Origin: a virus
Lineage: Duplodnaviria; Heunggongvirae; Uroviricota; Caudoviricetes
Strand: one strand, 5' to 3'
Virus record (IMG/VR): IMGVR_UViG_3300042922_001018
Length of the DNA: 64,000 nucleotides
Under the pieces are notes generated by a model. The model saw only the letters and a list, made by a program, of their open reading frames with translations, searched no databases and had not been told where the DNA came from. A program made the translations under genes and the position numbers. Below, in pieces: positions 30,468 to 62,469 of this stretch (the stretch's first letter is position 1; each line of letters begins with the position of its first letter).

Positions 30468-30476
30468 CCGCCTACA
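30468..30476 (+). promoter_or_regulatory. CCGCCTACA box
   Basis: 8 nt before ATG 30485. Confidence 0.75.
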
Positions 30477-30484
30477 CGGTAGAC

Positions 30485-31234
30485 ATGACGACTTCCCCGC
30501 TTTCGCTGTCCGGCATTCAGCCTCGTGACACGCACGGCCGCTTCTCTGAGAAGAGCGGTTCTGCACCCGAGGTCGGCCTCGACACGCCTCCGTCCCCGCT
30601 GGAGGCGAAGAACTTCACGGAGTTCCGCGAGCGGTTCCACAACCTCCCGACGCTGGAGGAGAAGGTCACTGTTGTCGAAGAGCGGTGGGATGCCTGGAGC
30701 CGTCGCGAGCGCATTCAGAACCTCGAAAAGGTCACCAACATCGCTTCCCTCAGCCCGAACTCTCCGCGGGTTCTCGACGAAATCTTCACGGGCGAGTACG
30801 GACCGAAGGCTGACGCAGCACTCGTAGCCAACGACTACCTCGCTGCTGGCGCCCGGTACAAGCTCCTCCTATCGTACCGCGCGAAGGAAGCCGATACCCA
30901 GGAAGAAGCAGACGACCGCGAGCGTGTTCTTCACGCAGCCGCATGGAGCCTGAAGTCACCTCGACACCGGATGGTTCTCGACATGCTTGCGACGGACACA
31001 GACGCTCGTGTCCGCGCCGCTGTCGCTCTGAACCGTCACACGTCTCCGGCGACGTTGGAGAAGCTTGCTCGTGACCCGGATGTCATCGTGCGGGAGCACG
31101 CGGTCTACAACGACTCGACACCCGCCGCGGCGAAGGTGCACACCGCTCTGAGCGTGGACGTTCCACAAGAAGACTACGCTCAACTGAAGCACGCCTTCCT
31201 CGACCGTCACCGCCCCCTCGACGAAGCGGTCTGA
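30485..31234 (+). CDS. Family A protein with LRV/HEAT-like repeats
   Basis: PRDTHGRFSEKSGSAPEV; DARVRAAVALNRHTSPATLEKLARD. Confidence 0.85.
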   Translation: MTTSPLSLSGIQPRDTHGRFSEKSGSAPEVGLDTPPSPLEAKNFTEFRERFHNLPTLEEKVTVVEERWDAWSRRERIQNLEKVTNIASLSPNSPRVLDEIFTGEYGPKADAALVANDYLAAGARYKLLLSYRAKEADTQEEADDRERVLHAAAWSLKSPRHRMVLDMLATDTDARVRAAVALNRHTSPATLEKLARDPDVIVREHAVYNDSTPAAAKVHTALSVDVPQEDYAQLKHAFLDRHRPLDEAV

Positions 31235-31277
31235 GTTACATCTATGTAACATGGGCACCATGTTGCACATTTGTAAC
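31235..31277. promoter_or_regulatory. Tandem AT-rich palindromic operator-like sites
   Basis: GTTACATCTATGTAAC (31235-31250) and GTTGCACATTTGTAAC (31262-31277). Confidence 0.5.
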
Positions 31278-31290
31278 ACAGCTCGTATTG

Positions 31291-31299
31291 CCGCCTACA
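31291..31299 (+). promoter_or_regulatory. CCGCCTACA box
   Basis: 7 nt before ATG 31307. Confidence 0.8.
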
Positions 31300-31306
31300 A
31301 CTGGGC

Positions 31307-31990
31307 ATGACGTTCGATGAGTCCAATGTGCGCCGACACTCTTCTGGGCAGTTCGCCGAGAAGCACGGAAGCGCGCCTGAGCTGACGCTTGGCCAGGACG
31401 GTACGCGCATGCTGGGGAGTACCGTGATGCTGTACGAAGGCAACGGCGTCTACCGCGAAGAGCCGAAGGCCGTGTCGGAAGAGATGCGCGCATACAACCG
31501 CCAGGTAGCTGAAGCGCGCAGGCGCGCAGATGCCGTCGCCGCGCTCTACAACGAAGACATGGAACTCTACGAGCACCTCTCGGCGGATGATGACCAGGAC
31601 ACCATCGACCGGTACCAGAAGATTGCCCAGCAGTACCGCGACATCGCGGCTTTCGAGCGACAGTGGGTTGAGGAGCACGACGGTGAGCTGCCGAGCTTCG
31701 TCCCGAACGAGAAGAAGAGCCGCGAGTTCGCGCGAGCAGTACGTGAACGTTTCGACATCACCCCGGTGCGCTACGTCCAGTTGCTCAACCGTGTACCCGA
31801 TGTCGCTCGCCTTCGGGAGAATCTCATTGAAGATGGCGCGACTGAGAAGTCCGCCGCTCTCGAAGCTATCGTCCAGTTCACGGGTGGCCGTCCTCCACGT
31901 CCGCGCTTCCTGACGAAGCGCCAGCAGGACGAAGACTTCGACCGCTGGGAGTCTCAGCACGAGGCAGAGATGCAGCGAGGTTTCGGATGA
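31307..31990 (+). CDS. Family A protein
   Basis: MTFDESNVRRHSSGQFAEKHGSAPEL. Confidence 0.85.
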   Translation: MTFDESNVRRHSSGQFAEKHGSAPELTLGQDGTRMLGSTVMLYEGNGVYREEPKAVSEEMRAYNRQVAEARRRADAVAALYNEDMELYEHLSADDDQDTIDRYQKIAQQYRDIAAFERQWVEEHDGELPSFVPNEKKSREFARAVRERFDITPVRYVQLLNRVPDVARLRENLIEDGATEKSAALEAIVQFTGGRPPRPRFLTKRQQDEDFDRWESQHEAEMQRGFG

Positions 31991-32355
31991 CCTCCGTGCT
32001 CGACCAGCCGCGCACGCACTCCGGCCGTTTTTCCGTCAAGACCGGAACACAGCCGGAACTTACGCTGCCCATGCTCTCCGGCGGAGACCCGCCACTTCCC
32101 CACACTGACACAGGCGAAGGTCCGGGCGTTCAAGTGTCCGTTGACCTTCGCGGTGGGAACTACAAGCACCCGAAGTTCGGAACGTTCCATCGTGACGGTT
32201 GCGGCGACGCCGTAGACCTGGAACCCCTTGGGGTTGCGCGCACTTACCGCGATGTGCGAGACTTGGCACGCACCCTCGGTCCGAACTTCAACCTCCCCAC
32301 TGCCACCATCAAGCGCAAGTGCGCTGACTGCCTGAAAGCTGCCCTAGGAGACTGA
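31987..32355 (+). CDS. Family A protein with Cys motif
   Basis: PRTHSGRFSVKTG; HRDGC...CADC; ATGA overlap. Confidence 0.8.
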   Translation: MTSVLDQPRTHSGRFSVKTGTQPELTLPMLSGGDPPLPHTDTGEGPGVQVSVDLRGGNYKHPKFGTFHRDGCGDAVDLEPLGVARTYRDVRDLARTLGPNFNLPTATIKRKCADCLKAALGD

Positions 32356-32356
32356 C

Positions 32357-33292
32357 ATGACGTTCGCAGAGACCGACCACCCGCGCGAGAGCGATGGCAA
32401 GTTCGCCGAGAAGACCGGCGCAGCACCGGAGGTAGAGCTGGACGGCTTCCTCCTGTCGCCTGAAGCAGAACCAGTAGACTTCCCGAACGGGCAGCACGTC
32501 CTCTACAAGCGATGGGACGGCGATGCCCCGGCCCGTATCCTTCACGGTGACCCGTACGAGGACACCGGCAACCGTGTCTACACGCTCATCATGGATGACG
32601 GTAACACGTGGTCCGGCGTCTATGCGGAAGAACTCCGAGTTGACCCGAGCGTCGATTCCACCGACTCGATTGCTCGCTCCGCGTCGTTCGATGCCGGATA
32701 CAAGCTGGTCCGCGAGATGACGGACGGCCGGGTCTCCCGTTCGGAGCGTATGCACCTTGTGGACATCGAGGCTGGTATCAACGAGGCCATGAACGAAGAG
32801 TGGCGTAACCAGGCTCTCCGCGGCTTCGCGCGTCTTGGCGAAGAGACCGAAGGCACCGAGGACAAGCACCTCCGAGACATCATCGACGAGGCAGTGGACG
32901 ACGCCCACGCATCGCTGAAGCGTCGCGGGTTCCTGGAAGGCGAGGAGCGGGAGCTGGCGGTCACGCGGCAGACGGCACTGGCGCTGTTCTACCGCAACCG
33001 TATCGACGACTCGTCGGATGACTGGACGCAGGACCACTACGACCACGTGACTCGCGCATGGCGCGAAGCAGTCGGCCCCATCCACCCTGACGACGAAGCC
33101 CGTCCGGCTTCGTGGGACGCGACGCAGCACACCGCGATGTCGCCTGCCCGGAAGTACGAAGACTACAGCGACAAGGAGCTGCGCGAGCAGCGTGACCGCG
33201 CTTGGTCGGAGTACCGCGCAGACGGCGAACCCGGCGCCCGTCGTGCAGCTCAGGTGTTGGACGCTGCGGCCGAGCACCGCGGACTTCAGTGA
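32357..33292 (+). CDS. Family A protein, acidic, multi-module
   Basis: MTFAETDHPRESDGKFAEKTG; AGGAG SD. Confidence 0.85.
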   Translation: MTFAETDHPRESDGKFAEKTGAAPEVELDGFLLSPEAEPVDFPNGQHVLYKRWDGDAPARILHGDPYEDTGNRVYTLIMDDGNTWSGVYAEELRVDPSVDSTDSIARSASFDAGYKLVREMTDGRVSRSERMHLVDIEAGINEAMNEEWRNQALRGFARLGEETEGTEDKHLRDIIDEAVDDAHASLKRRGFLEGEERELAVTRQTALALFYRNRIDDSSDDWTQDHYDHVTRAWREAVGPIHPDDEARPASWDATQHTAMSPARKYEDYSDKELREQRDRAWSEYRADGEPGARRAAQVLDAAAEHRGLQ

Positions 33293-33822
33293 CCTTCGTC
33301 GCGACGGAGCGTGTGAACCCCACTGGGTCCACCGGCCGTGAAGGGTTTGACCCTTCACAACATCCACGGTCATCCTCCGGCCGGTTCACTGAGAAGACTG
33401 GCTCCTTGCCGGAGGTGGAACTCGGCTATCGGTGGAAGGAAATCTGGGAGTTCGATGACGGCTGGACGATGGCTGTCGAGCAGGCGAACAGTTACTACCC
33501 CGAGTTCAAGCGCGGGTGGCTCCGATTGCCAGACGGCACCCCTATCGGCATGATTCACTGGTCCACGAAAGACGCAGAGCCGTGCATCTGCGACATCGAA
33601 GTGCGCGACGAGTATCGCGGGCAGGGCTTGGCGAAGCGGCTCATTCATTCGGTCGAAGACCAGATTGGTGGGCGACTACACACGACAGGTAGCTTCACAC
33701 CGGAAGGCCGCGCCGCGCTGGCAGCCGCCACACCACAGGCCTCAGGGTACCCGGCGAGGCAGCATGATTTCAGGTCGATGACGTTCATCCATGACTGGGA
33801 TGCGCTCCAGACGAACAGCTAA
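33289..33822 (+). CDS. Family A protein with GNAT acetyltransferase domain
   Basis: HPRSSSGRFTEKTG; IEVRDEYRGQGLAKRL acetyl-CoA motif; FTPEG. Confidence 0.8.
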   Translation: MTFVATERVNPTGSTGREGFDPSQHPRSSSGRFTEKTGSLPEVELGYRWKEIWEFDDGWTMAVEQANSYYPEFKRGWLRLPDGTPIGMIHWSTKDAEPCICDIEVRDEYRGQGLAKRLIHSVEDQIGGRLHTTGSFTPEGRAALAAATPQASGYPARQHDFRSMTFIHDWDALQTNS

Positions 33823-33833
33823 GAAGCTCGTTG

Positions 33834-33842
33834 CCGCCTACA
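33834..33842 (+). promoter_or_regulatory. CCGCCTACA box
   Basis: 7 nt before ATG 33850. Confidence 0.8.
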
Positions 33843-33849
33843 TTCGGGC

Positions 33850-34230
33850 ATGACATTCTCCGAGACTGAGGTCCGCCGAGACGCGGGCGGTAAGTTCGCC
33901 GAGAAGCTTGGCGCTTCGCCGGAGGTAACTCTTCCCCCGGCGCCGTTCGAGAGCTACGAGGTACGCGGTGTCAAGCCGGGTGACCTCGTGGACACTGAGA
34001 GCAACACGCACGACGGGCCTTTCGACTTCGCGTTCATGCACAACCGAGCTTTCCGCCAGGCATGGAAGTCTGCGGGGCGTCCGCGCCATCTTCGCGTTCT
34101 ACAGGCGGGCCGAGCGAAAGAGGACGGCCACACGGACAACGCCATCATTTTCGACCTCGGCGGGGAGCCGTTCGAGTTGACTTTCCATCGCGACCGCGAG
34201 ATGCTTGTTTCGCGCCCGAACAAGGAGTGA
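33850..34230 (+). CDS. Family A protein
   Basis: MTFSETEVRRDAGGKFAEKLG. Confidence 0.85.
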   Translation: MTFSETEVRRDAGGKFAEKLGASPEVTLPPAPFESYEVRGVKPGDLVDTESNTHDGPFDFAFMHNRAFRQAWKSAGRPRHLRVLQAGRAKEDGHTDNAIIFDLGGEPFELTFHRDREMLVSRPNKE

Positions 34231-34233
34231 GCC

Positions 34234-35034
34234 ATGAGCTTCAACGAGTCTGAAATCAACCGCGCCACTGACGGCAAGTTCTCCGAGAAGGAGGGCACCC
34301 CGCCTGAGGACGGCTTCGCGAAAGAGCTGGCTGACACTCTCTGGTCCATCCGTGAGCGTGACGCCCGAGAAGGCGTCTGCGGCGTGGACTACGACCACAC
34401 CGAGACCACCACGTATGAGGACGACGAACTCGTTCAGTGGAAGTGCGAAGAGTGCGGTGCGGAGGGCGAAGTTGACCTCACCGAAGAGCCGGGCGACCTT
34501 CTGTCGGGCAAGACGATGGATGACCTGATGGGCCGCACCGCCGACGAGCCGGGCGCTCTGAACGGTTTCCGTCTGGACGACCTCATTATCTACGAAGACG
34601 GCGAAGACGGCGACGATGAGGACGACGACTTCGACATCACCCGCAAGTTCTCGTACCAGCGTTCCTACCCAGGTATGAGCGGCATCCCCGCAACTTCCAC
34701 CAAGCACTGCGCTGAGTGCGGGGACGAGATGCGGGTGAACGCCGAAGGAGTCTCGAACCACATCGCCGCCGACGGCGGCATCGACTACGACAAGGACGCT
34801 CAGCACGCAGCCATTGACGACGCCGCGTACGGCGACGCCGATGAGAGCAATGTGCTCTTCGTTACGGATGACGGGTTCGAGGTTCAGCGTGCCACCGACG
34901 AAGGCTCGTACGCGGTGTACGCGGCTGACGGCACGTTCCTCACGAACGTCACCAGCGCATCGGAGGACCACCTCAGCATCGAGGATGAAGTTCGAGAGCG
35001 TCTGGCAGAGCTGAAGGCCGCTAGCGGACAGTAA
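34234..35034 (+). CDS. Family A protein, very acidic, with CxxC motifs
   Basis: NRATDGKFSEKEG; CEEC, CAEC; AAGGAG SD. Confidence 0.85.
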   Translation: MSFNESEINRATDGKFSEKEGTPPEDGFAKELADTLWSIRERDAREGVCGVDYDHTETTTYEDDELVQWKCEECGAEGEVDLTEEPGDLLSGKTMDDLMGRTADEPGALNGFRLDDLIIYEDGEDGDDEDDDFDITRKFSYQRSYPGMSGIPATSTKHCAECGDEMRVNAEGVSNHIAADGGIDYDKDAQHAAIDDAAYGDADESNVLFVTDDGFEVQRATDEGSYAVYAADGTFLTNVTSASEDHLSIEDEVRERLAELKAASGQ

Positions 35035-35041
35035 CGCTGTA

Positions 35042-35050
35042 CCGCCTACA
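35042..35050 (+). promoter_or_regulatory. CCGCCTACA box
   Basis: 7 nt before ATG 35058. Confidence 0.8.
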
Positions 35051-35057
35051 GACGGTC

Positions 35058-35858
35058 ATGACATTCGCCGAATCTGAGCACCCGCGCGCCACCGACGGTA
35101 AGTTCGCTGAGAAGGTCGGCGCCGCGCCTTCCATCTCGCTGGACGTGAAGCCACCCATCACGGCGAAGGTCGTGCATCAGCAGTGGATTGGCGATTACGC
35201 GGTCGATACCGGCGAGGAGACGGAGTTCGACATCCGGGCGGTTCTCGACGCGGCGCCCCTGGAGGACATTCGCTCGATGGAAAGCTCTGGCGACCGGGAC
35301 TGGCTTCACTTCGATGCTGTCAACGCTGGCCTCATTGAACCCGCCGAAGGACCGTTCTACATCGACACGTTCGCTGCTGAAGAAGACCTCGAAGAGTACA
35401 TCGCGGCTCGCGAGGCGGCAGGCCAGGAAGACCCGGTAGCGGAGCTGGAGCCGTCTCAGAAGCTTGTCCGCGAACGCGTTGGCGCGGCACTCCAGGGCGC
35501 TCGCGGCGCTCTCCCGCTGTCCATCATCACCATGGACGGGAGCGAAGACGGAGACCTCAGCGCAAGCCGCACCGGGCATCTTGTTGCTGACGGCATCCTG
35601 CGGGCGCAGCACTCTTTGAACGCGCTCGCGGTGGACTCCGCACGTCTCGATGAGTCCGACCGTAAGCACCTGTCCGACATCGACCAGCTTCGTGACCTCA
35701 TCAGCTACGACCGTCTGAACCAGGCCACGGTGACCCCGGAGAGCCGACAGAAGGTTGTTCGTATCGTCGCTGGTCTGAACGACTACCTGTGGAACCGTGA
35801 AAACCACCTGTCTCAGCAGGACACGCTCGAATCTCAGCCCGCCGCATCTGTCGAGTGA
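35058..35858 (+). CDS. Family A protein
   Basis: MTFAESEHPRATDGKFAEKVG. Confidence 0.85.
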   Translation: MTFAESEHPRATDGKFAEKVGAAPSISLDVKPPITAKVVHQQWIGDYAVDTGEETEFDIRAVLDAAPLEDIRSMESSGDRDWLHFDAVNAGLIEPAEGPFYIDTFAAEEDLEEYIAAREAAGQEDPVAELEPSQKLVRERVGAALQGARGALPLSIITMDGSEDGDLSASRTGHLVADGILRAQHSLNALAVDSARLDESDRKHLSDIDQLRDLISYDRLNQATVTPESRQKVVRIVAGLNDYLWNRENHLSQQDTLESQPAASVE

Positions 35859-35921
35859 CGACCTTGCTCGTGCAGAGGTAAGCACCCCGCGGAGGCCCGG
35901 CCGCTAGACTGAGGCCTGACC

Positions 35922-36353
35922 ATGACCTTTCTCGTTGACCTTCTCATGCCGAAGCGTCCGCCTCGCGGCGAGCGCGAACCCGGCCTGTCAACCATGGCCA
36001 TCGCCGAAGTCCCTTTCAAGCACGAAAGAAATCGTGACGCATTCGAGCCGTGGGCGCTGCGCCCCGTCATCCACACGCTCCACCCCGTCATCACTCATGT
36101 GACCGATGAGGGAGACCCGCACTGGGAGGTCTGGTTCGTCCACAACAACCGACCGGTTGTTCTCGCGGTCCCTTCTCCCGGCGTCGGGGAACTGTCGATG
36201 GATGACCTCACTGAGTACCTGTCGAAGTCGGTCTCCCATGAACGTCAGGGCACCGCCTCCGCGGATGAGCTGCGGGCTGCGCGTTTCGCCCGCCGCGTCC
36301 GCGAGATGGTGTGCCTGGAGACATGGCCAGAACCACAGCCGCCTACCATTTGA
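35922..36353 (+). CDS. Hypothetical protein (no family A leader)
   Basis: GC3-rich ORF between family A genes. Confidence 0.65.
   Translation: MTFLVDLLMPKRPPRGEREPGLSTMAIAEVPFKHERNRDAFEPWALRPVIHTLHPVITHVTDEGDPHWEVWFVHNNRPVVLAVPSPGVGELSMDDLTEYLSKSVSHERQGTASADELRAARFARRVREMVCLETWPEPQPPTI
36339..36347 (+). promoter_or_regulatory. CCGCCTACC box (variant)
   Basis: 7 nt before ATG 36355, inside the end of the upstream CDS. Confidence 0.7.
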
Positions 36354-36354
36354 C

Positions 36355-37113
36355 ATGACCTTCGACCCGAATGACCACCCACGCTCGACAGACGGCACCT
36401 TCGCAGAGAAGGTCGGTTCGAGCGCGGAGGTGAAGCTCTCCGTTAGTGAGCTGGACCACGGGCTATTCGACGATGTGCGGACACAGGCTGGCGAAGCGTA
36501 CGAGACGTACGGTCGAGCGCTCGCTACCGAGCGTATCCAGCGCAAATACCCGACCGCTGTGCGCGCCACGGTCGCGGTAACCCAACACGATGAGGTCACG
36601 GTCTCTTCTATCGAAGATGCAGACGGCGTACTCCTCTGGGAGGCGAGCGAACTGAACGAAGGCGACGCTATCCACCACGCTGCCGCAAGCATCCCGGCCG
36701 ACGCTGTGCAGAACGGTTCGTACCTCGACCTCGGCGGAACACCTGACTCGCAGGAGGCGTTCACGCACTACCACCGCGCTGCAACTGAGACGCAGGCGGT
36801 CGCGGTGCAGGCGCTAGCGAACAGCATCCGTCTCCGCTTCCCCGAGGCGGTATCGGTGGAGATGGACGCGGACGACGCGGATGACGATGACCCGGACATC
36901 GAGCGCCGCCCGACCGCGGTGTTCAACGCTGCTGGCGAGAAGATGTGGACTTCAGGCTCGGGCGATGAGAGCATCTTCGCTCCCAACAGCCGCGACCGCG
37001 AGTACCTTCAGTACGCGAACTTCGAGTACGACGGTGACACGGATGCGATGGTCGTCCGCCTGCCTGTGAACCTTTTCGATGAGTCCACGTGGCCTGAGTC
37101 CACACCTTTCTGA
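36355..37113 (+). CDS. Family A protein, acidic, internal duplication
   Basis: MTFDPNDHPRSTDGTFAEKVG. Confidence 0.85.
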   Translation: MTFDPNDHPRSTDGTFAEKVGSSAEVKLSVSELDHGLFDDVRTQAGEAYETYGRALATERIQRKYPTAVRATVAVTQHDEVTVSSIEDADGVLLWEASELNEGDAIHHAAASIPADAVQNGSYLDLGGTPDSQEAFTHYHRAATETQAVAVQALANSIRLRFPEAVSVEMDADDADDDDPDIERRPTAVFNAAGEKMWTSGSGDESIFAPNSRDREYLQYANFEYDGDTDAMVVRLPVNLFDESTWPESTPF

Positions 37114-37132
37114 ACCAAGGAGCAACACCAAC

Positions 37133-37954
37133 ATGACTTTCAGCGAGACCGATGTCGTACGCGACGCCGCGGGTAAGTTCTCGGAGAAGACCGGCTCGGC
37201 GCCGGACATCTCAGTGACCCCGCCCAAGAAGACATACATCTACCGCGTGGAAGGCGACGACCACGAGACCGAGGACGTAGAAGCATCCAGCGAGGAAGAG
37301 GCGCTGAACATCGCCGCAGAGCTGTTCGAGGAGCGCTACAGCGGTGACGAAGAAGATGATGACGATGACTCCGAACCGACGGATGTCCGTGACCTTCTGT
37401 TCGTGAAGGCGGTCTACGAAGGCGACATCAACGACTACGACGACGAGTGGACGAAGGTCACGCCGGGCAAGCACTTCCACGACCCGAACTACGAGCATGT
37501 CGCTGGACGATACGCGGGCTACGAGGTGAAGAACTACCGGAAGCTCCCCATCGGGATGGAAGGTGGCGCATTCACCGCGAGCATCTGGCGTGACGGCAAG
37601 CGTGTCATGCTTGTCGAGAACGCGGGCAACGGCGGCGCGAACACGTACACTGACCTGAGCAGCCCGAAGACCCCGCTTCGGCACCGTGGCGAAGAGATTG
37701 ACCGCTTCAAGAAAACCGCAAGCGCCATGTACGGCCCGGACAAGTACGAGAGCGATGATGCGCTCTTCGCGTTCGTGCAACTCGGTAGCGAGGTTGACCG
37801 CTTGGCCCGCATCAACGGTTGGTCGCGTACAGAGACCGCCGAAGCGATGGCAGAGGACTACGAGAAGCAGATGGCCGAGTTCGGAAGCAAGGCGGATGAA
37901 GTTGAACTCGCGGCGCTCCGCGACCCGTCCATCATCTCGCGCCTGACCGACTGA
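37133..37954 (+). CDS. Family A protein, acidic
   Basis: MTFSETDVVRDAAGKFSEKTG; AAGGAG SD. Confidence 0.85.
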   Translation: MTFSETDVVRDAAGKFSEKTGSAPDISVTPPKKTYIYRVEGDDHETEDVEASSEEEALNIAAELFEERYSGDEEDDDDDSEPTDVRDLLFVKAVYEGDINDYDDEWTKVTPGKHFHDPNYEHVAGRYAGYEVKNYRKLPIGMEGGAFTASIWRDGKRVMLVENAGNGGANTYTDLSSPKTPLRHRGEEIDRFKKTASAMYGPDKYESDDALFAFVQLGSEVDRLARINGWSRTETAEAMAEDYEKQMAEFGSKADEVELAALRDPSIISRLTD

Positions 37955-44318: not shown

Positions 44319-45083
44319 TCAGTCGATACGACGGTAGACGGTCTCGACGCCGTATTCAGACTTCGAGCTGATGACGATGTCGCCGCCACGGTCGAAGACT
44401 TCGTCGTCCGGGGTGATGGTCGCCTCGGAGCCGCTGTCCCACTTGATACGACCGTTCTTCGAAGAGACAACAGTACGGTCGTCCGCCATGCGAGCGGAGA
44501 CGCCACCGTTACGGTAGGTCTGTGTCGCCACGTCGTACCCAGCCTGTGAGACGACAGCGAACTTGGCACCCGGTTCGAAGCGACGGCCAGCTTCCGCCTT
44601 CGAGAGTGGCTTGTCGATGCGCTCGCGGTAGACGTAGTGGCTCGCGTCGGAGTAAAGCACGATGAGCGGGAGGTCAAGGCGCGCGGTCTTGAAGCCCTGA
44701 CTGGTCACCCAGTCGCCGTAGTTGAGGTCGTTCCACAGCTCTCCCGCAGGAATCGGCTCACCGATGTGCTCACCGCGCGCATTCAGCTCGGTCCAGTTCT
44801 CGTTGTCGAACTTCTGGTATCGGACCGGCTTCGGGTTCTCCACCTTGGGGTCAACGACGGTCAGGACAGAGGTACGAGGCGCGTCGAAAAACTCATCGTC
44901 GTCCGCTGGCTGAAGCGGAAGATACGGCCGCATCGGGCGGTCCCCACGGTCGAGGTCATTGTCCCAGCGGCTTGAAGCCCACGGGTTACCTGATGCGGCA
45001 AGGCTCACTTCAGGGGTGCCGCCAACCTTCTCCGAGAAGCGTCCAGCGTTATCTCGGGATACGTCCAGCTCATTGAAAGTCAT
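44319..45083 (-). CDS. Family A protein
   Basis: MTFNELDVSRDNAGRFSEKVG. Confidence 0.85.
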   Translation of the reverse strand: MTFNELDVSRDNAGRFSEKVGGTPEVSLAASGNPWASSRWDNDLDRGDRPMRPYLPLQPADDDEFFDAPRTSVLTVVDPKVENPKPVRYQKFDNENWTELNARGEHIGEPIPAGELWNDLNYGDWVTSQGFKTARLDLPLIVLYSDASHYVYRERIDKPLSKAEAGRRFEPGAKFAVVSQAGYDVATQTYRNGGVSARMADDRTVVSSKNGRIKWDSGSEATITPDDEVFDRGGDIVISSKSEYGVETVYRRID

Positions 45084-45090: not shown

Positions 45091-45099
45091 TGTAGGCGG
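45091..45099 (-). promoter_or_regulatory. CCGCCTACA box
   Basis: 7 nt before ATG 45083. Confidence 0.8.
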
Positions 45100-46231: not shown

Positions 46232-47005
46232 ATGACTGACTACGCGAAGGTGTACGGGTACGACCCGCACACGTCCAGCAAGGTAATGCCTGTCGCGCTG
46301 GCATCCATCATCGTTGCGGTTATCAGTCTGTGCGTAACCGCTGTCGCGTTCGCCAATGCGGAGGCTGTTGGTGCGCTCACCGCCCCCATCGCCGTCACCG
46401 CGTTCGTATTCGCATTGCAGGCTGACAACATCGACCCCATCGGCCGAACCCTGGCGTACCGCATCCCGCTCCGATACCGCGAAGTCGTGCGGAAGGGATA
46501 CAACTACGGGTGGCGAGACCACTTCAAAACGAGTCCGCGCGCTGCCGTGTTCGCGAAGTCGATGATTGTCGCCGACCACGCTGAGTTCACCATCAACAGC
46601 GAGAAGACAGGTGGAGGCGGGAGGACGAGCGCTGCTGGCGTACGGTTCTGGGGCTTCTTCCACGACGACAACGAGCGAGAACTCAACCCGTTCTTCGCAT
46701 CCTGGAAGGCAGCTCGCTCCCTTGACGCGGACGAAATCCCCTGGGACGAGATGCCGAAGCTCTTGGCGTTCGCTGCCGACGCGAGTCGCTTTATCGCTTC
46801 CCGTGACCCCGAGGATGCTCGGACCCTCACGGAAATCACTCTTGCATGGCACAAGTCGGGAATGTCCGCAGAAGACGCTCTCGGCATCATCGACCGCTAC
46901 CCTCTCGCACTGGCAAAGATGCTTCTCGCGGGTGTTCCTCTAGAGTACGCTATGACGCTCACGGACACCGTCCCTGGGGTAACCGGCATCGACAACCTAT
47001 GGTAG
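46232..47005 (+). CDS. Family B protein with N-terminal TMs
   Basis: GGAGG SD; ends AGVPLEYAMTL. Confidence 0.75.
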   Translation: MTDYAKVYGYDPHTSSKVMPVALASIIVAVISLCVTAVAFANAEAVGALTAPIAVTAFVFALQADNIDPIGRTLAYRIPLRYREVVRKGYNYGWRDHFKTSPRAAVFAKSMIVADHAEFTINSEKTGGGGRTSAAGVRFWGFFHDDNERELNPFFASWKAARSLDADEIPWDEMPKLLAFAADASRFIASRDPEDARTLTEITLAWHKSGMSAEDALGIIDRYPLALAKMLLAGVPLEYAMTLTDTVPGVTGIDNLW

Positions 47006-47014
47006 GCTAGTACA

Positions 47015-52877: not shown

Positions 52878-53282
52878 ATGACCTCGTATCAAGAACGCAT
52901 CCGGTCTGAGTTCCCCGGCTTGTACTCCAGCTCGCTGGCGCGTGTCATCCAGGCCGAAACCGTCCCCGAAGACTACCTCCGCGTCTTGCTTCTCGACGCG
53001 GACGAGTTCTTCGACACGATGGTCATTGCTCTCGTAGCGCCGCAGTGCGCGGCGGCGGGAGTCCCAGCCGAGTATCTCCGTGACACCTGGCGGCTGCCTT
53101 TCTCCGGCGGTCAGGACGACGGCATGCCGGAACGACTCATCGAGCTCTATGCCGCCGGAGTACCCAGAGAATACGCGAGCCAGCTATCGCACCCGAGACG
53201 AGACGTAGGCGACATCATCTCTGCGTGGTCTGCGGGACTGGCGCCGGAGTACGCAGAAGAACTCTGGCGGGCAGTCGGTTAA
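52878..53282 (+). CDS. Family B protein
   Basis: GVPAEYL, GVPREYA, AWSAGLAPEYA. Confidence 0.85.
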   Translation: MTSYQERIRSEFPGLYSSSLARVIQAETVPEDYLRVLLLDADEFFDTMVIALVAPQCAAAGVPAEYLRDTWRLPFSGGQDDGMPERLIELYAAGVPREYASQLSHPRRDVGDIISAWSAGLAPEYAEELWRAVG

Positions 53283-53752
53283 GCCGCGGCTGGGTCGGCG
53301 TACTTCGAGCGGTCGAGAGTACGGTGCTTGTCGCTCCGCCGGTTCACCCAGTTGGTGACGATAGTCCATGGCTGCTTCTTGTGCTCGCCGGGTCGCATGA
53401 CCATCACGATGTCGTCCTGGTTGCTTGACGGGTGCGGGACGCGGACAAGCAGCTTCGAGACTCGCCCTCCCGAAACAGACACCTCGATGACCTGGCATTC
53501 GCGCAGGTCTACCTTGTCCAGCTTCGGGATGTAGTTGTACCGGTCGTTCTCACGCTCTCGGTCGGCGTGGCCGGTGTATTCGCAGAAGATTTCACGCTGA
53601 GGCACAGTCACATTCGAGGGGATGCCGATGTCACGGTGATACGTGATTTCGTCGGCGGGCTTCTGGAACAGAGCGACCTCCGGCTGTGAGCCGACCTTGT
53701 TGTCGAAACGTCCGTCAGTCTGACGCCGGACATTGGCCTCGTTGAATGTCAT
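53279..53752 (-). CDS. Family A protein, possible RNase-like cargo
   Basis: RRQTDGRFDNKVG; YTGHADRER...IVTNW. Confidence 0.8.
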   Translation of the reverse strand: MTFNEANVRRQTDGRFDNKVGSQPEVALFQKPADEITYHRDIGIPSNVTVPQREIFCEYTGHADRERENDRYNYIPKLDKVDLRECQVIEVSVSGGRVSKLLVRVPHPSSNQDDIVMVMRPGEHKKQPWTIVTNWVNRRSDKHRTLDRSKYADPAAA

Positions 53753-53759: not shown

Positions 53760-53768
53760 TGTAGGCGG
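53760..53768 (-). promoter_or_regulatory. CCGCCTACA box
   Basis: 7 nt before ATG 53752. Confidence 0.8.
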
Positions 53769-54903: not shown

Positions 54904-54963
54904 CCTTCGACCCTATCAGATTTGACGAGCGAAGGGAAGGGGTAACGCTGGTAGACTAGGCCC

Positions 54964-55458: not shown

Positions 55459-55467
55459 CCGCCTACA
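55459..55467 (+). promoter_or_regulatory. CCGCCTACA box
   Basis: 7 nt before ATG 55475. Confidence 0.8.
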
Positions 55468-55474: not shown

Positions 55475-56263
55475 ATGACCTTCGACTCATCTCAACATCC
55501 GCGCAACACGGACGGTAAGTTCTCTGAGAAGGTCGGTTCACAGGCCGAAGTATCGCTTCCGGCTGCCCAGAAGCCGGATACGCTCGTCCAAGATGTCAAG
55601 GACGCCTGGGATGAACGACACGCGAAGAAAGCCGACATCTCCTTCCGTATCGAAGAAGCAACCGCTGTCATGCGCTCCTCGCAATGGCACCCGGCCATGC
55701 CAGACATGGGCGACAGTCGTGAGAAAGACAAGTACCTCTCGGCGGAGTATCGACTAGCGGAAGCTCTCGCTGAACGTGACGCCAGCCGGATGCTCGTGGC
55801 TCGCGCTGTAGGTACAGCAGGGAAATCGACGGGAAGCGTTGAAGCGGGGGTTGTCGGCGGGACCGGTAATGCGCTCGCATCTCTCATCTCCCTGCCTCGC
55901 ACGCTGAAGATGTTCCGCCTGAAGCGGCTTGCGGCGCGGCATCCGGAGCTACGAGAGCTGGACGCAACTGTGAACTCGCGGCCGGAGACTCGACGCGAGC
56001 TTATCGACAGTCGCGCCGCCGCCTTCGCTCGCGAGAACGGCAGGCCGGACCCTGCGCAGTTCGCGGCCTGGCTGCGAGACTTCTACCGGCTGGACTTTCC
56101 CATGGACGCGAACGCTACCCCGCAAGAGCGCGCAGTTCGCCGGGACGCAGAGCTGACCCGCGCCAACGTCCTTCCCGCTGCGCGTGAGGCGTACTTGTCG
56201 AATGACCCGCAGCGGTACATCGACGGCCTTGACCCCCGGAGGACGGACCTCAACCAGTGGTAG
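55475..56263 (+). CDS. Family A protein
   Basis: MTFDSSQHPRNTDGKFSEKVG. Confidence 0.85.
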   Translation: MTFDSSQHPRNTDGKFSEKVGSQAEVSLPAAQKPDTLVQDVKDAWDERHAKKADISFRIEEATAVMRSSQWHPAMPDMGDSREKDKYLSAEYRLAEALAERDASRMLVARAVGTAGKSTGSVEAGVVGGTGNALASLISLPRTLKMFRLKRLAARHPELRELDATVNSRPETRRELIDSRAAAFARENGRPDPAQFAAWLRDFYRLDFPMDANATPQERAVRRDAELTRANVLPAAREAYLSNDPQRYIDGLDPRRTDLNQW

Positions 56264-56264: not shown

Positions 56265-56273
56265 CCGCCTACA
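56265..56273 (+). promoter_or_regulatory. CCGCCTACA box
   Basis: 7 nt before ATG 56281. Confidence 0.8.
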
Positions 56274-56280: not shown

Positions 56281-56907
56281 ATGACTTTCAACCCGACCGA
56301 ACACCCGCGCGCGAACGACGGCAAGTTCGCCGAGAAGCTCGGCTCCGCCGCCGAGGTATCCCTCGATGCTGGTCCGGACTTCGAGAAGCTTGCCGCGAAG
56401 GCGAACCGCGCCGGGAAGCGCTCCGGCGACAAGCGTCTTGACATCACCGATGGTGACGCCGCCCTTGTCGAAGAGCTGACCGCAGCGCTGCGCGACCCTC
56501 GTGTCCCCGAGTCCGTGTTCGATGCAGCGGCGACGTTCGCCGAGCGGCTCGAAGATGCCAACTTCCACAGCGCTGTCCGCCGCCTGGACGCGGCGGTCGG
56601 TGAAGCTGCGTACCGTTCTGACCCGAGTGCTCCGGTCAAGAACCCGGCTGCTGTCATGCAGGCGTCTGCTGACATGGACCTTGTCCGCACGGCCGCTGAC
56701 CAGTACGGCTCTCGGATTCACCAGACCTACCTGGAGACACAGGACGCGGCTACCGCTGCTGAATGGGCGCAGGAGCGTATCGACAACAATCTGGTCTTCA
56801 ACCCGAACCTGGATGAGGAACTTGCTCGCGAGCTTCACGGGCGAGTAACCGGCTGGCGCCGCAGCGAACTTCTGGCGAACCCGAGCCTGCCCGCAGACCT
56901 TCGCTGA
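56281..56907 (+). CDS. Family A protein
   Basis: MTFNPTEHPRANDGKFAEKLG; LRV-like C-terminus. Confidence 0.85.
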   Translation: MTFNPTEHPRANDGKFAEKLGSAAEVSLDAGPDFEKLAAKANRAGKRSGDKRLDITDGDAALVEELTAALRDPRVPESVFDAAATFAERLEDANFHSAVRRLDAAVGEAAYRSDPSAPVKNPAAVMQASADMDLVRTAADQYGSRIHQTYLETQDAATAAEWAQERIDNNLVFNPNLDEELARELHGRVTGWRRSELLANPSLPADLR

Positions 56908-56929: not shown

Positions 56930-56938
56930 CCGCCTACA
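56930..56938 (+). promoter_or_regulatory. CCGCCTACA box
   Basis: 7 nt before ATG 56946. Confidence 0.8.
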
Positions 56939-56945: not shown

Positions 56946-57998
56946 ATGACTTTCGACTCCGCTGCTCACCCCCGCGCTACCGATGGCACCTTCGCTGAGA
57001 AGGTAGGCGCAAGCCCCGAAATCGCGTTGCCACAGGACGAAGGTCTCCACGTCATCGGGCTACCGCGCGATGAAGGCATGGGCATCATCTACACCGACCT
57101 CGACGTTCTCCAGTACGCGAAGGACTACTACGAAGAGGACTGGGAGACCAGCGAAGACCGCGAAGCCATCCTTGCTGAGCGCCGTGACGAGTACCTGACG
57201 TACCGCCAGACGACCAATGGCATCGAGGAAGCCGCTCGCTACTTCAACTCCGGTGCCAAGGAGACCGTTCTGGACGGCGATGAAGAAGTGGAACTCGCAG
57301 ACCTGCCCGCTACCGTCCGCCACAACGCTATCGAAGCGGCGCTCGCCGTTGAGGCAGACGACGTGGAAGGCATCCGCGCCATTTACGCGCTCGGCGAGAA
57401 CGCTTCCGACGAATGGAACGACCACGAGTTCGGCGGCGAACTGGCCGACATCATCGGGACGAAGATTCTCACCGACCCGCTGAAGCTCCCCCGCGACGAT
57501 GAAGGACGCCCGGTCTATGACTTCGAAGGCGTAGCCCAGCGCGAGAAGTACCACCGTGCCGCGAAGGCATCCCTGGAGGTGCTTGCATCGGGCGCGAAGA
57601 TTCCTGCGAACCTTGACCACTGGGGACGTGTGTACTGGGCCGCTGAAGAGAAGCGTACTCCCGCTGAACTTGCGAAGGTACTCCTCACCGAGTCCGAAGG
57701 CGAGTTCGCTCGCGTCATCCTCGACCACAAGAAGGTCACGCCTGAGATGGTCACGTACGCCGCCCGCTCGAACGATGGTGCCGTACAGCACGCCGTTATC
57801 CAGCACCCGAAGGTCACAGCCGCCGCTCTCCGGGAGGTGCAGGCTCGCGTCGAACGCGACTACGCTCACGCCACCGACCCGCTGAACGCGTGGGGCACGA
57901 TGAAGTCGTACTACGACCAGTCGGCCGCGCAGGCATCACGCTTCATGGGCTACATCTCGGATGCACGTGGGCGTCTCGGCGCCGACGGCGCATGGTAA
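56946..57998 (+). CDS. Family A protein
   Basis: MTFDSAAHPRATDGTFAEKVG. Confidence 0.85.
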   Translation: MTFDSAAHPRATDGTFAEKVGASPEIALPQDEGLHVIGLPRDEGMGIIYTDLDVLQYAKDYYEEDWETSEDREAILAERRDEYLTYRQTTNGIEEAARYFNSGAKETVLDGDEEVELADLPATVRHNAIEAALAVEADDVEGIRAIYALGENASDEWNDHEFGGELADIIGTKILTDPLKLPRDDEGRPVYDFEGVAQREKYHRAAKASLEVLASGAKIPANLDHWGRVYWAAEEKRTPAELAKVLLTESEGEFARVILDHKKVTPEMVTYAARSNDGAVQHAVIQHPKVTAAALREVQARVERDYAHATDPLNAWGTMKSYYDQSAAQASRFMGYISDARGRLGADGAW

Positions 57999-58736: not shown

Positions 58737-58774
58737 GCGATTGCGTTCTGGTACGCTGGGGTACGGAGGACATC

Positions 58775-58939: not shown

Positions 58940-59187
58940 GCCGTCCGAAGAAGACGGCCAATCTCGAATCGGCGGAGCGTTTTGCGCGCCGCCACAGGTT
59001 CTACATCCACGCCGACGGTCGCCGGATGCCCATTCTCGTTCGGTCCAGCTCCGGACTCTCGGCTACAGCGCATGTACGCGCTCGCGCGGAGCGTCTGCGA
59101 CTCATTCTCGGGCCACCGCTCCCAACCCCTGACGAACCCACGCGACGGAAGCCAGTACGGCGCAGAATCCTGCCACCTCCGCGGTAG
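58936..59187 (+). CDS. Small basic hypothetical protein
   Basis: Start overlaps upstream stop; MSRPKK. Confidence 0.45.
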   Translation: MSRPKKTANLESAERFARRHRFYIHADGRRMPILVRSSSGLSATAHVRARAERLRLILGPPLPTPDEPTRRKPVRRRILPPPR

Positions 59188-59208
59188 CCTCCTGGTAGGC
59201 TAGGTCGC

Positions 59209-59661: not shown

Positions 59662-60198
59662 CTAGGCTGGGATGTACCGGCCGGTGACCTCGAAGGTCTG
59701 ACCGGTCAACGGCGCGAGAGCCGCAATCCATCGAGCCGCGGTGTGCTCTCCCGGCTGGATGTACGCCAGCGTGACGTGCGGCGTGTACGCCGGGAAGCAG
59801 TCGATGTGAGGCAGCAAGCGCAGCCGGTCATGGCCTTCCTCCAGGTTCGCGGTGACCACGAGCTTCGCTACGACACAAGAGAACTCAGGGGTCGGGAAGA
59901 CGTGGATACGCTCGACTGTCACCGGCTCCGGTGTCCACCCCTCCAGCACACGGTCCACGTGGGCAGCGGGCACGGTCTCCAGAATGCCCTGATGCAGGGT
60001 GAGATGCGCGGAGGTCTCCGCCACCGCGCCCTGCGCGTACCGTGTCTTGTGCGTCGTCCCGAAGAACAGCTCGTCCGGCCCGTCGATGTAAGCGCTGACC
60101 GGGATGTTCGCAACATCCAACATGATGGCATCCAGGCTGTATAGGTCGATGCCGACCTCAGGGTAGATGTCTTCGTGGTCGAACGCAGAGAACGTCAT
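59662..60198 (-). CDS. 2H phosphoesterase (Acb1-like candidate)
   Basis: Two HxT motifs: AHLTL and YTPHVTLAY. Confidence 0.8.
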   Translation of the reverse strand: MTFSAFDHEDIYPEVGIDLYSLDAIMLDVANIPVSAYIDGPDELFFGTTHKTRYAQGAVAETSAHLTLHQGILETVPAAHVDRVLEGWTPEPVTVERIHVFPTPEFSCVVAKLVVTANLEEGHDRLRLLPHIDCFPAYTPHVTLAYIQPGEHTAARWIAALAPLTGQTFEVTGRYIPA

Positions 60199-60235
60199 GC
60201 GCTCATCATAGCGCAGAAATCACTGCCGCGCACAT

Positions 60236-61267
60236 TCAGCGGGCGTCGAACCCTTCGACGCGCTTCACGTAATCCTGGTAGTGCGATGCCTGTGTCTCGG
60301 TGAGCTTCGAGAGGTCAACACGCTTCGTCATGCCGCCCCAGCCATCCGGCACGTCACGTACGGCGCCGGGGACCGTGAGAAGCTGCTGCTTGAACTCGGT
60401 GAACCCGGCCTCGACCTCTTCCGGTGTCGCCTGCCAACCCAGGTCGTAGACCGACTGGTAGTTGATACGGGGAGCCTGCGTGAATGTGGAGCCAGGCTTG
60501 AAGTCGCCGCTCAGCTCTACCGCGGGGACATTCCGGATGCGCTCGAAGGACTGGTCATCCCCACGGTCGCGAGCGACCTCCAGAGCCTTCTGGACGGCCT
60601 CTTCGCGCTGGTCGAGTGGGAACACCCAGTCGTTCACAGGACGGCCGTCTGGGGTCTTGTAGCGCGAGACAGACTCGATACCGAGTGCCGTGCTGCCGTG
60701 GTTACCGCCCATGCCGTACGTGCTCACCGCATACACCGGCTCTTCCGCCTTCGTCCAGACCTCGTCGCCGAGAACGAAGAGCTGGTTCGCACGAGTCTGA
60801 ATGTCCATCGCTACGCCCGCGGGAGTTCCCTCATCGGAGTAGGGGCCGCGCCAGCCGCCTTCGAACATGCTCTTGATGTCGTCCGCCGAGGTCTTCGACT
60901 TCACGTACAGCTCGCCGTTGTGAACGCGGTACTCGCCCGGCGTGAACTGGTCACCGTTGAACGAGATGGCGACCGGCGCGTCGTCGTCGCCGAGAATGGA
61001 GACAGTAGCCTCCAGGTCAATCGTGCGTTCGATGTCACGCGGCTTGCGAGCGCGGGGCGGGATGACATTGCGTTCCGTCCAGTTGACGGTCAGCGGGACA
61101 ATCAGTTCCGGCTCGTATGGGCCACCGAGGGAGAGTTCCGGAGCTTGTGGACGGTCCCCGTCCACTGCGCGCAGCGATTCGCTAAGCGATATCTCTGCCG
61201 CCGACCCCTGCTTCTCCGAGAAGCGGCCGATGGTGTCGCGCTGGATGTTGGTCTCGTTGAACGTCAT
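60236..61267 (-). CDS. Family A protein
   Basis: MTFNETNIQRDTIGRFSEKQG. Confidence 0.85.
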   Translation of the reverse strand: MTFNETNIQRDTIGRFSEKQGSAAEISLSESLRAVDGDRPQAPELSLGGPYEPELIVPLTVNWTERNVIPPRARKPRDIERTIDLEATVSILGDDDAPVAISFNGDQFTPGEYRVHNGELYVKSKTSADDIKSMFEGGWRGPYSDEGTPAGVAMDIQTRANQLFVLGDEVWTKAEEPVYAVSTYGMGGNHGSTALGIESVSRYKTPDGRPVNDWVFPLDQREEAVQKALEVARDRGDDQSFERIRNVPAVELSGDFKPGSTFTQAPRINYQSVYDLGWQATPEEVEAGFTEFKQQLLTVPGAVRDVPDGWGGMTKRVDLSKLTETQASHYQDYVKRVEGFDAR

Positions 61268-61274
61268 GCCCAGA

Positions 61275-61283
61275 TGTAGGCGG
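61275..61283 (-). promoter_or_regulatory. CCGCCTACA box, within an inverted repeat
   Basis: 7 nt before ATG 61267; TAGGCGGAG 61277-61285 pairs with CTCCGCCTA 61302-61310. Confidence 0.8.
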
Positions 61284-61316
61284 AGATGTAACCCAGATAG
61301 GCTCCGCCTAGGCCGG

Positions 61317-62027
61317 TTACGACTCGCGCTTGTGCTTGCGCAGCTTCCGCGACGATGTCAGCGTGACCTGACCTCCGCACTCCGGGCACGTTCCCCAGTT
61401 GCCGGAGTAGTACCCGACACGGTGCGGCTTCTCCCGGTCCAGGTTCGAGCCGGTTCCGGGGCACACGGACTCATCCACTGGCTTCGTGGTCAGTTCCGTT
61501 GGCGCGCTCGGGAAGCAGATGGTGCAGAGCGTCGCGCCGTGCTCTTTCACTGCTTCCGCCTCCGTCAAACCGGAGACGTTCGGGAGCCACGAGACTCGCG
61601 TCGTCGGGCGGAACGAAGAGCAATACTGCGAGCTGTGGATGTGCTCGACCAGGAAGAAGCGATTCCAGCCCTTGTACAGCTCCTTGTCGAGCTTCTCGGC
61701 TTCGACACGGAACGGGGCAGCCTCTTCAAGGAGCCGGTCGGATTCCTTGAACTGCGCGTCGATGCGAGGGATGAGACGCTCACGGGCAGTGGCCGAATAC
61801 TGCCCCAGTGTCTTACGGGTCTTCGTCGCAGACTTGTACAGTGCTGCGGCCTGGTCCCGAATGTCGTAGTAGGCGTTCCATGTTTCAGCGATACGGGTGT
61901 CCGCATCTCGCGCGGCAGCAATCTCAGTCGCGCGGTCGGTAGCGAGATTCAGCTCCGGCGCAGACCCGAGCTTGTCAGCGAACCGTCCGACAGTGTCGCG
62001 GTTATGCTCGGTCTCGTTGAATGTCAT
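61317..62027 (-). CDS. Family A protein with Cys/His zinc-binding-like cargo
   Basis: HNRDTVGRFADKLG; HIHSSQYC..CTICFPSAP; CPG..CPEC..H. Confidence 0.85.
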   Translation of the reverse strand: MTFNETEHNRDTVGRFADKLGSAPELNLATDRATEIAAARDADTRIAETWNAYYDIRDQAAALYKSATKTRKTLGQYSATARERLIPRIDAQFKESDRLLEEAAPFRVEAEKLDKELYKGWNRFFLVEHIHSSQYCSSFRPTTRVSWLPNVSGLTEAEAVKEHGATLCTICFPSAPTELTTKPVDESVCPGTGSNLDREKPHRVGYYSGNWGTCPECGGQVTLTSSRKLRKHKRES

Positions 62028-62469
62028 GCCCGGATGTAGGCGGGTTCCGAGACACGCGAACGGCGAAAAGGATACCGAGGACCGTGCCCATCAGAGGCAA
62101 CGTTCCTACGATGAGAATGACAAGATGCGGAAAGAACTCGAAGCTGGAGGAGTCATAGTACGGGCTGCCTTGTCCTACGACAACATACGAGTAGAGCGCC
62201 GCAGTCGCAGTGTTCACGCCGAGGTAGGACAGGACGCCAGACCAGCCTAGTTTTAACGACGGGTACAGGAACAGTCCCGCGAATACGGTCTCAGCGACAA
62301 TACCGTAAAGTAGGACGTTGCCAAAGCCGACCCAGATATCTTCAGGTAGACCTTGGGTAGCTGTACCCGCAGTGCCATTGCCAAGCCAGTATGCGTTAGC
62401 GATAACGGATGCAGCCGCCGCCGATACGGCAAACACCACGCTGGACAGGAAGAGAACGAGAAACTTCAT
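62002..62469 (-). CDS. Multi-TM membrane protein (tandem paralog)
   Basis: ANAYWL; LKLGWSGVLSYL; lower GC. Confidence 0.7.
   Translation of the reverse strand: MKFLVLFLSSVVFAVSAAAASVIANAYWLGNGTAGTATQGLPEDIWVGFGNVLLYGIVAETVFAGLFLYPSLKLGWSGVLSYLGVNTATAALYSYVVVGQGSPYYDSSSFEFFPHLVILIVGTLPLMGTVLGILFAVRVSRNPPTSGHDIQRDRA
62035..62043 (-). promoter_or_regulatory. CCGCCTACA box
   Basis: 7 nt before ATG 62027. Confidence 0.8.

Follow-up and report, generated by a model that had tools for sequence, protein, structure and literature searches.

What signal is carried by a nine-base word that stands directly before the start codons of one set of genes sharing an N-terminal tag, and what reads it? The question arises from a 64,000-nucleotide (nt) stretch of DNA catalogued as viral (IMG/VR record IMGVR_UViG_3300042922_001018), referred to here over its full length as the window, in which the word CCGCCTACA (the box) occurs repeatedly. 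The window corresponds to approximately positions 206260-270259 of a 450,372-bp actinobacterial plasmid-like metagenome contig (Ga0456364_0000048; Joint Genome Institute, JGI) with transfer genes. We consider it likely that the box is the -10-region core of a promoter class private to giant actinobacterial plasmids, at which a plasmid sigma factor would begin leaderless transcripts.

A box is locked to the starts of tagged genes

Eleven exact copies of the box were found in the 64 kb versus 0.47 expected from dinucleotide-preserving shuffles of the window (shuffle maximum 2). Allowing one mismatch, box-N7-ATG gave 11 sites in the window, the variant CCGCCTACC at 36339 among them. All twelve window boxes (11 exact and one variant) are co-oriented with a tagged gene and lie N7 from its ATG, or N8 once, while relaxed or one-mismatch copies elsewhere in the window were all inside genes and noise-like. 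A sequence-only reading of this DNA had listed twelve boxes, and every coordinate and strand in that list was correct, with the N8 spacing at 30468 only. It had also asked whether the motif is common at random positions; the excess over the shuffles and the locking of the exact copies to tagged-gene starts speak against this. The boxes are as follows.

30468..30476, + strand: box CCGCCTACA, N8, ATG at 30485; gene with a degenerate tag and LRV/HEAT repeats
31291..31299, + strand: box, N7, ATG at 31307; tagged gene 31307-31990
33834..33842, + strand: box, N7, ATG at 33850; tagged gene 33850-34230
35042..35050, + strand: box, N7, ATG at 35058; tagged gene 35058-35858, with the box directly past the stop codon of the upstream gene
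36339..36347, + strand: variant box CCGCCTACC, N7, ATG at 36355; tagged gene 36355-37113, with the identical variant in the L204 orthologue
45091..45099, - strand: box, N7, ATG at 45083; tagged gene 44319-45083
53760..53768, - strand: box, N7, ATG at 53752; tagged gene 53279-53752
55459..55467, + strand: box, N7, ATG at 55475; tagged gene 55475-56263
56265..56273, + strand: box, N7, ATG at 56281; tagged gene 56281-56907
56930..56938, + strand: box, N7, ATG at 56946; tagged gene 56946-57998
61275..61283, - strand: box, N7, ATG at 61267; tagged gene 60236-61267
62035..62043, - strand: box, N7, ATG at 62027; tagged gene 61317-62027
31987..37954, + strand: span of five tagged genes without their own box, starting at 31987, 32357, ~33289-33340, 34234 and 37133

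The tag is a shared N-terminal stretch of ~30 residues, M-T-F-x-E-x-x-[HV]-[PR]-R-x-x-x-G-[KR]-F-x-E-K-x-G-x-x-P-E-V-x-L, and box and tag are found together on unrelated protein bodies. The base after TACA-N in the window boxes is C, T, A or G, with no fixed T, and no Shine-Dalgarno site was found in the spacer between box and ATG. The distance from the box to the upstream stop codon is often only 20-40 nt. The five tagged genes that have no box of their own are joined to a boxed unit by an ATGA/GTGA overlap or an AGGAG site in 5 of 5 cases, as had been proposed. In the GNAT acetyltransferase open reading frame (ORF) at 33202-33822, the tag lies ~45-60 residues into the longest ORF, and the real start is probably a GTG overlapping the upstream stop near 33289.

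The box is conserved as a DNA word

To the window and the contig we added a related-element sample of 24 metagenome pieces (~170 kb in total), found by a scan for the box followed by the first tag codons. A census begun from the tag, not from the box, covered 114 tagged ORFs with readable upstream DNA. An exact box at N7/8 preceded 65 of the 114 and a one-mismatch box at N7/8 another 4; in 4 more an exact box lay 37-39 nt upstream and was followed by a Shine-Dalgarno leader. The 41 ORFs with no box mostly had an AGGAG-type site or overlapped the upstream gene. A box adjacent to the start and a Shine-Dalgarno site are mutually exclusive, and the box heads transcription units; genes inside an operon that bear this tag have AGGAG and never the box. 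Among the 62 unique box-N7-ATG sites, information content stayed at or below 0.3 bit everywhere upstream of -17, which argues that there is no -35 at the box. GGC was preferred at positions -3 to -1, with C at -1 in 97% of the sites. The sequence-only reading had described all three features, a missing Shine-Dalgarno site, the lack of a shared -35 and a spacer ending in GGC, and each was borne out.

In 12 orthologous pairs with protein bodies 52-86% identical, the box was 100% identical and the spacer between box and ATG 69% identical, while upstream flanks were at the random level of 30-32%. Among paralogues within the contig the box was invariant, with 47% identity at the third codon positions of the tag and 26% in the upstream flanks. 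Because the flanks and tag third positions have diverged and the box has not, the box appears to be kept by selection on the DNA word itself and not by recent copying.

Several boxes beyond the window depart from the usual arrangement. At 92272 (extended coordinates), a box 6 nt past the dnaE stop is followed by a 22-nt leader with GAAGGAG. The gene behind it (92303-93127; L224:14480-15304), 28 kb past the window end, encodes 274 amino acids (aa) with no N-terminal tag, but its C-terminal end is the tag core ..RRTNGQFDYRRGSYPEVRLR, 800 nt from the box. Since this gene is boxed yet C-terminally tagged, the box seems to go with the tag in the protein and not with 5' coding DNA. Shine-Dalgarno-led tagged genes follow the box after 39 nt at 111429 and at L197:70, and in the related contig L216 the box precedes a GNAT-like gene wholly without tag. 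The statement that the box stands before no other gene therefore held within the window but not beyond it, given the gene at 92272 without an N-terminal tag and the untagged boxed gene of the related contig.

Untagged genes carry host-type -10 hexamers

The other genes had been said to use mostly TANNNT, and this was confirmed. A TANNNT hexamer stands exactly 6 nt upstream of the first start codon in 20 or more window ORFs and in 37 over the extended 121 kb, and before untagged window genes it is mostly preceded by TGG or TGN. Two examples are:

47003..47008, + strand: TGG-TAGGCT, 6 nt before GTG 47015 of an untagged helicase gene
54952..54957, + strand: host-type extended -10 TGG-TAGACT, 6 nt before ATG 54964 of an untagged gene

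Almost every untagged gene has its start 6 nt past TGG-TA-NNN-T, as at 4028, 5747, 11654, 47015, 54964, 58008, 59209 and other window positions. Similar TANNNT hexamers precede the VirB4-like and coupling-protein-like genes, though at a distance from the start that is greater by a few bases. Judged by their sequence, the TANNNT-N6 sites are ordinary actinobacterial extended -10 promoters of leaderless mRNAs, and because untagged genes carry them, leaderless expression would be the rule on this element. The box occupies the -10 position but with another sequence, one base off the TANNNT-N6 register.

Related plasmids share a core word with and without a -35

Comparison of the VirB4-like protein places the contig closest, among named elements, to plasmids of 0.37-0.61 Mb from Pseudarthrobacter (pACHL01, pPA-B-2242), Arthrobacter, Paenarthrobacter and Curtobacterium (pS16, pCPAA3), at 42-45% identity, and farther from Bifidobacterium megaplasmids (26.5% for pMP7017). 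GCCTACA-N7-ATG had at most one match in six related plasmids, which is chance level, and CCGCCTACA-N7-ATGAC in species genomes gave, among the matches listed, only scattered single chance ones. In place of the window word the related plasmids use CCGCACACA or CCGCGCACA, and the common pattern is CCGC-N-Y-ACA (the core). The T of "TA" is not kept in the relatives, which have CACACA; core variants in the family include CCTACA, CACACA and CGCACA. Five plasmids were taken whole or nearly whole, and in each of them 53-95 cores are followed, after 7-9 nt, by the ATG of an ORF that is 50 codons or longer. Core copies are given below, with tagged genes as a fraction of all boxed leaderless genes for the three Micrococcaceae plasmids.

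pACHL01: 199 core copies, commonest CCGCACACA; tagged 1/48 with -35 and 21/40 without
pPA-B-2242: 166 core copies, commonest CCGCACACA; tagged 2/29 with -35 and 24/43 without
Arthrobacter sp. zg-Y1110 plasmid (zgY1110): 213 core copies, commonest CCGCACACA; tagged 1/47 with -35 and 29/48 without
pS16: 115 core copies, commonest CCGCGCACA
pCPAA3: 122 core copies, commonest CCGCGCACA

Two classes of core can be told apart in the three Micrococcaceae plasmids. In class A, a -35-like cGGnGAG at -38 to -32 is followed by the core and then by T; core and -35 occur together in 73-104 copies in pACHL01, zgY1110 and pPA-B-2242. This class heads untagged leaderless genes with varied N-termini. Among its non-leaderless cores, a Shine-Dalgarno site and ORF follow within 150 nt in 78/145 (25/51, 20/42 and 33/52), and these Shine-Dalgarno-led genes have predicted leaders of ~35-40 nt. 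In pACHL01, cores also lie 37-170 nt before genes for tRNA-Ala, tRNA-Phe and transfer-messenger RNA (tmRNA). One region of this plasmid (27520-36918; L128) holds 40 tRNA genes and the tmRNA gene interspersed with class A cores.

Class B has the same core without a -35, before genes with the tag variant ..RQPxGIPxGGQFA..H.EP..L. On the two Curtobacterium plasmids a -35 is missing from nearly all leaderless cores, most of which stand before tagged genes; the tags there are of several subtypes. On this comparison of sequences, the pairing of no -35 with the tag is a family-wide rule. The position of the core before tRNA and tmRNA genes and its variable distance to Shine-Dalgarno-led starts argue that it is a transcription signal and not a translation signal.

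Across the plasmid family, the core word is not private to tagged genes, although it is private here as far as the contig was read. A strict code in which the word marks tagged genes alone does not stand, since the core with a -35 heads untagged genes, leadered genes and tRNA/tmRNA genes in three related plasmids. In 401 genomes of the order containing Microbacterium, CCGC-N-Y-ACA-N7/8-ATG occurred ~2-12 times per genome, and a reversed control pattern gave about half as many matches. One outlier (G346) had 29 matches in 5.4 Mb and may carry a related element. Because the pattern is at background level there versus 53-95 leaderless copies per plasmid, host chromosomes do not appear to use this promoter.

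Candidate readers of the box

Sigma-70-type genes are present on each of the five relatives. A search for RNA polymerase beta subunits, with a valid control, found none there. For the single-subunit polymerase family PF00940 there was no match on the relatives either, and control genomes were equally silent, so that result is uninformative.

A three-gene block stands behind a ParA-like ATPase gene (L226:15177-19580), and the ParA gene and the block are syntenic in 6 of 6 replicons, the contig and the five relatives. The third block gene encodes a 278-aa protein (L226:18744-19577), 55 kb past the window end; its pACHL01 homologue is an HTH-domain gene at 330755-331642. Pfam placed sigma region 3 in it below threshold (17.5 bits). 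A profile search gave ~160 relatives of this family; of 42 aligned, 14 had region 3 and 3 had region 2. In a PDB profile search, 12 of 13 weak matches were sigma factors. The AlphaFold model of the protein has a predicted local distance difference test (pLDDT) score of 86, and its top 50 Foldseek matches were all sigma factors with probability ~1, aligning over ~280 columns with full-length sigma-B, sigma-S, sigma-A and FliA chains. The template modelling (TM) scores were low (0.23-0.32), which we attribute to domains oriented differently. Judged by this model, the protein is a divergent member of the sigma-70 family in which regions 2, 3 and 4 are recognisable.

The first block gene (270 aa) had no profile similarity to the sigma-like family and no Foldseek match below 1e-3. 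Its best structural matches were to sigma domain 2 (Z 6.8-6.9), within the chance range for helical proteins. The middle block gene had no match in Pfam.

A group-1-like sigma gene is present only in the three plasmids with class A promoters. It is a stand-alone gene of 370 aa in zgY1110, and in pACHL01 it is fused to a helicase in a 990-aa protein (377249-380221; L143:15249-18218) with a DEAD/ResIII helicase, sigma-70 regions 2, 3 and 4 and a helicase-associated domain. The fusion gene itself sits behind a class A promoter, and the zgY1110 and pPA-B-2242 counterparts align with it only over the sigma part. On this distribution, which in related plasmids amounts to few independent observations, class A would pair with this group-1-like sigma and class B with some other factor, perhaps the product of the ParA-linked gene.

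A further sigma-like protein carries the tag itself and is encoded behind a -35-less box, in pACHL01 at 357317-358354 (NC_011879.1; L001:37376-38413) and in zgY1110 at 269064-268042 (L160:8045-9064, - strand). It has a weak match to sigma-70 region 2 (17-21 bits). Identity is 53% between pACHL01 and zgY1110, 50-59% for pPA-B-2242 and 26-30% for pS16 and pCPAA3. This tag-bearing protein could be a delivered transcription starter.

A model of the box and its rivals

In the model that we favour, host core RNA polymerase would carry a plasmid-encoded, highly divergent sigma factor that binds CCGC-N-Y-ACA, here CCGCCTACA. The box would act as an extended -10 or -10-region element for which no -35 is required, and the first transcribed base would be the A of the ATG, 7-8 nt past the box, with C at -1 and A at +1. 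With such a start, the first gene of each tagged unit would be made from a leaderless mRNA, and the later tagged genes of the unit would be translated from ordinary Shine-Dalgarno sites. The box would thereby mark a regulon of address-tagged proteins, with replication, transfer and other genes on host-type TGN-TANNNT leaderless promoters. The start site, the reading of the box by a plasmid sigma (and by which one) and the co-regulation of the tagged genes are what we infer from the evidence above.

The sequence-only reading had likewise suggested a leaderless, -10-only promoter with an element-encoded reader. Much of this stood: there is no -35, the distance to the start fits, the word differs from TANNNT, it is at background in the 401 host-order genomes, and a sigma-like gene is present in all six replicons. 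What did not stand is the restriction of the core to tagged genes. The analogy it had drawn between the reader and that of T4 late promoters also needs correcting, as the model of the candidate sigma spans sigma2-3-4 in full, which gp55 does not.

Several points weigh against this model. The 278-aa protein is tied to the box only by their joint presence in six related replicons, which amounts to few independent events, and the sigma4-like C-terminal part of the protein fits poorly with a promoter that has no -35. The relatives hold other plasmid sigma genes that are group-1-like, SigF-like and, with a tag, ECF-like (extracytoplasmic function). A start at the A of the ATG puts the TA of the box one base nearer than the host-type TA. 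Part of the conservation at -3 to -1 and at +4 to +9 stems from the search pattern. Beyond the window 57 kb more of the contig were read, so that 27% of its 450 kb was covered in all.

A quite unlikely alternative is that the box is an operator for a plasmid activator or repressor laid over a weak host-sigma promoter, with no contact by a private sigma. The closest published case, a plasmid motif over the -10 in pMP7017, was interpreted as a transcription-factor site (PMC10832533), and an invariant 9-bp word has the size of a half-site. However, the word is asymmetric and single at each site, its distance from the start codon is fixed within one base, as for a -10 element, and there is no host-type -10 in or beside it, the final hexamer position having no fixed T and the relatives having CACACA. 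The -35 found with some cores is cGGnGAG and not of the sigma-A kind. A second alternative, which we regard as very improbable, is that the box acts in the mRNA and, instead of a Shine-Dalgarno site, guides ribosomes or a plasmid factor to the AUG. Its place does suit a ribosome-binding site, with 7 nt to the ATG and often only 20-40 nt from an upstream stop, and the start-associated sequences of mycobacteriophages are equally locked to start codons (PMC3203893). But the core also precedes tRNA and tmRNA genes in the relatives, the box can stand 22-39 nt upstream of Shine-Dalgarno-led starts, and internal operon genes with the same tag rely on AGGAG instead. Box and spacer together match the complement of the anti-Shine-Dalgarno sequence (a typical 16S 3' tail) over at most 3 nt, and no RNA structure was found around the box (mean z +0.29, 19 sites).

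The sharing of box and tag by unrelated protein bodies would also be expected if box and tag codons formed the 5' end of a mobile cassette, a recombination site conserved by being copied, much like the recombination-prone 5' module that the sequence-only reading had offered as its own alternative. We give this very little chance. The synonymous sites of the tag are near-random (47% identity) versus 100% for the box, the flanks are unrelated, and an inverted repeat or structure was not found. One boxed gene has its tag at the C-terminus, 800 nt from the box, other boxes lie 22-39 nt off the tag codons, and the relatives have ~50 untagged cores per plasmid.

The favoured reading, a promoter core read by a plasmid sigma, can be extended to a two-tier private transcription code built on CCGC-N-Y-ACA. 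With a -35, the core would serve general plasmid genes, including the tRNA arrays; without it, a regulon of tagged proteins presumed to travel with the DNA, among them the tagged sigma-like protein, which might be delivered into a new host and set off the transcription of the plasmid there. As a whole this larger scheme is unlikely.

The element and its significance

Among the genes of the window are those for a VirB4-like ATPase, two FtsK/coupling-protein-like ATPases, a surface protein with leucine-rich repeats (LRR) and fn3 domains, and a helicase. A megablast search with 20 kb of the sequence against phage and plasmid collections gave no match, and the VirB4-like protein had no match among phages. 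Past the window, contig positions 270-327 kb (L221-L226) encode a DnaE-type polymerase (1480 aa), SSB, NucS and RNA ligases, as well as a NAMPT/PRPP pair for salvage of nicotinamide adenine dinucleotide (NAD), a Dam-like methylase and an M23 peptidase. The gene set of this region is unusually autonomous for a plasmid.

If the promoter reading is correct, a family of 0.4-0.6-Mb plasmids in soil and plant bacteria (Arthrobacter, Pseudarthrobacter, Paenarthrobacter and Curtobacterium) has its own promoter language, and a set of tagged, possibly transferred proteins can be read from DNA alone. The box is in addition a simple handle for spotting such elements and their cargo in metagenomes. Its interest lies in its scale (tens to hundreds of copies per replicon), in its tie to a set of tagged proteins and in its cultured carriers. 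Several of these carriers, such as the well-studied Pseudarthrobacter chlorophenolicus A6 (pACHL01), grow in culture, so that start sites, reader and timing are open to direct tests.

Comparison with known systems

A literature search found no paper on the box motif or on transcription of these plasmids, and the box is best placed by comparison with better-known signals. Leaderless sigma-A promoters of Mycobacterium, Streptomyces and Corynebacterium have TANNNT 6-7 nt before an ATG or GTG start. The box resembles them in a -10 region that abuts the start codon, in lacking a Shine-Dalgarno site and in a presumed start at the first base of the codon. It differs in that its sequence is CCGCCTACA, with no fixed T at the last hexamer position and a GC-rich upstream half in place of TGN, and in its confinement to a plasmid family.

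Late promoters of phage T4 consist of TATAAATA and are recognised by gp55 together with gp33 and the gp45 clamp, giving late mRNAs with leaders. As in T4, a short -10-only element with no -35 defines a regulon of a mobile genome, with an element-encoded reader that is presumed in the present case. Unlike in T4, the candidate reader is predicted to have all of sigma2-3-4 and is not a truncated gp55-type protein without domain 4, the core of the relatives also pairs with a -35, and the mRNAs are predicted to be leaderless. We know of no clamp dependence of box promoters.

In Pseudomonas syringae, the alternative sigma factor HrpL reads the hrp box, a bipartite ECF promoter whose transcripts have leaders and ribosome-binding sites, and thereby controls the type III effector regulon. 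There, as here, a dedicated promoter is paired with a short N-terminal address signal that can be placed before unrelated protein bodies. In contrast to the hrp box, our box has no -35, its mRNAs are predicted to be leaderless and export of the tagged proteins is only presumed. SigN (ZpdN) of the Bacillus subtilis plasmid pBS32 is a plasmid sigma that drives plasmid genes from its own bipartite promoter; the box plasmids belong to another phylum, and SigN has no link to leaderless starts or tagged proteins.

The Bifidobacterium breve megaplasmid pMP7017 has a plasmid-specific 34-bp motif over the -10 of 19 promoters, covering ~24% of its genes, with a canonical TATACT -10 inside; it is absent from host chromosomes, and the genes have 5' untranslated regions (PMC10832533). 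Like this motif, the box is a plasmid-only word of a megaplasmid family. Unlike it, the box has no canonical -10 and is linked to a tag, whereas the pMP7017 genes have no associated tag. The start-associated sequences (SAS) of Cluster K mycobacteriophages are asymmetric 13-bp words 3-7 bp before starts, mostly ATG, in the non-structural half of the genome; they are nearly absent from host genomes, have an AGGAG core and have been proposed to act in translation (PMC3203893). The box has no AGGAG core, and its relatives precede RNA genes. One defining feature each of the sigma-A, T4-late and Shine-Dalgarno/SAS classes was tested and was not seen here, which places the box outside all three.

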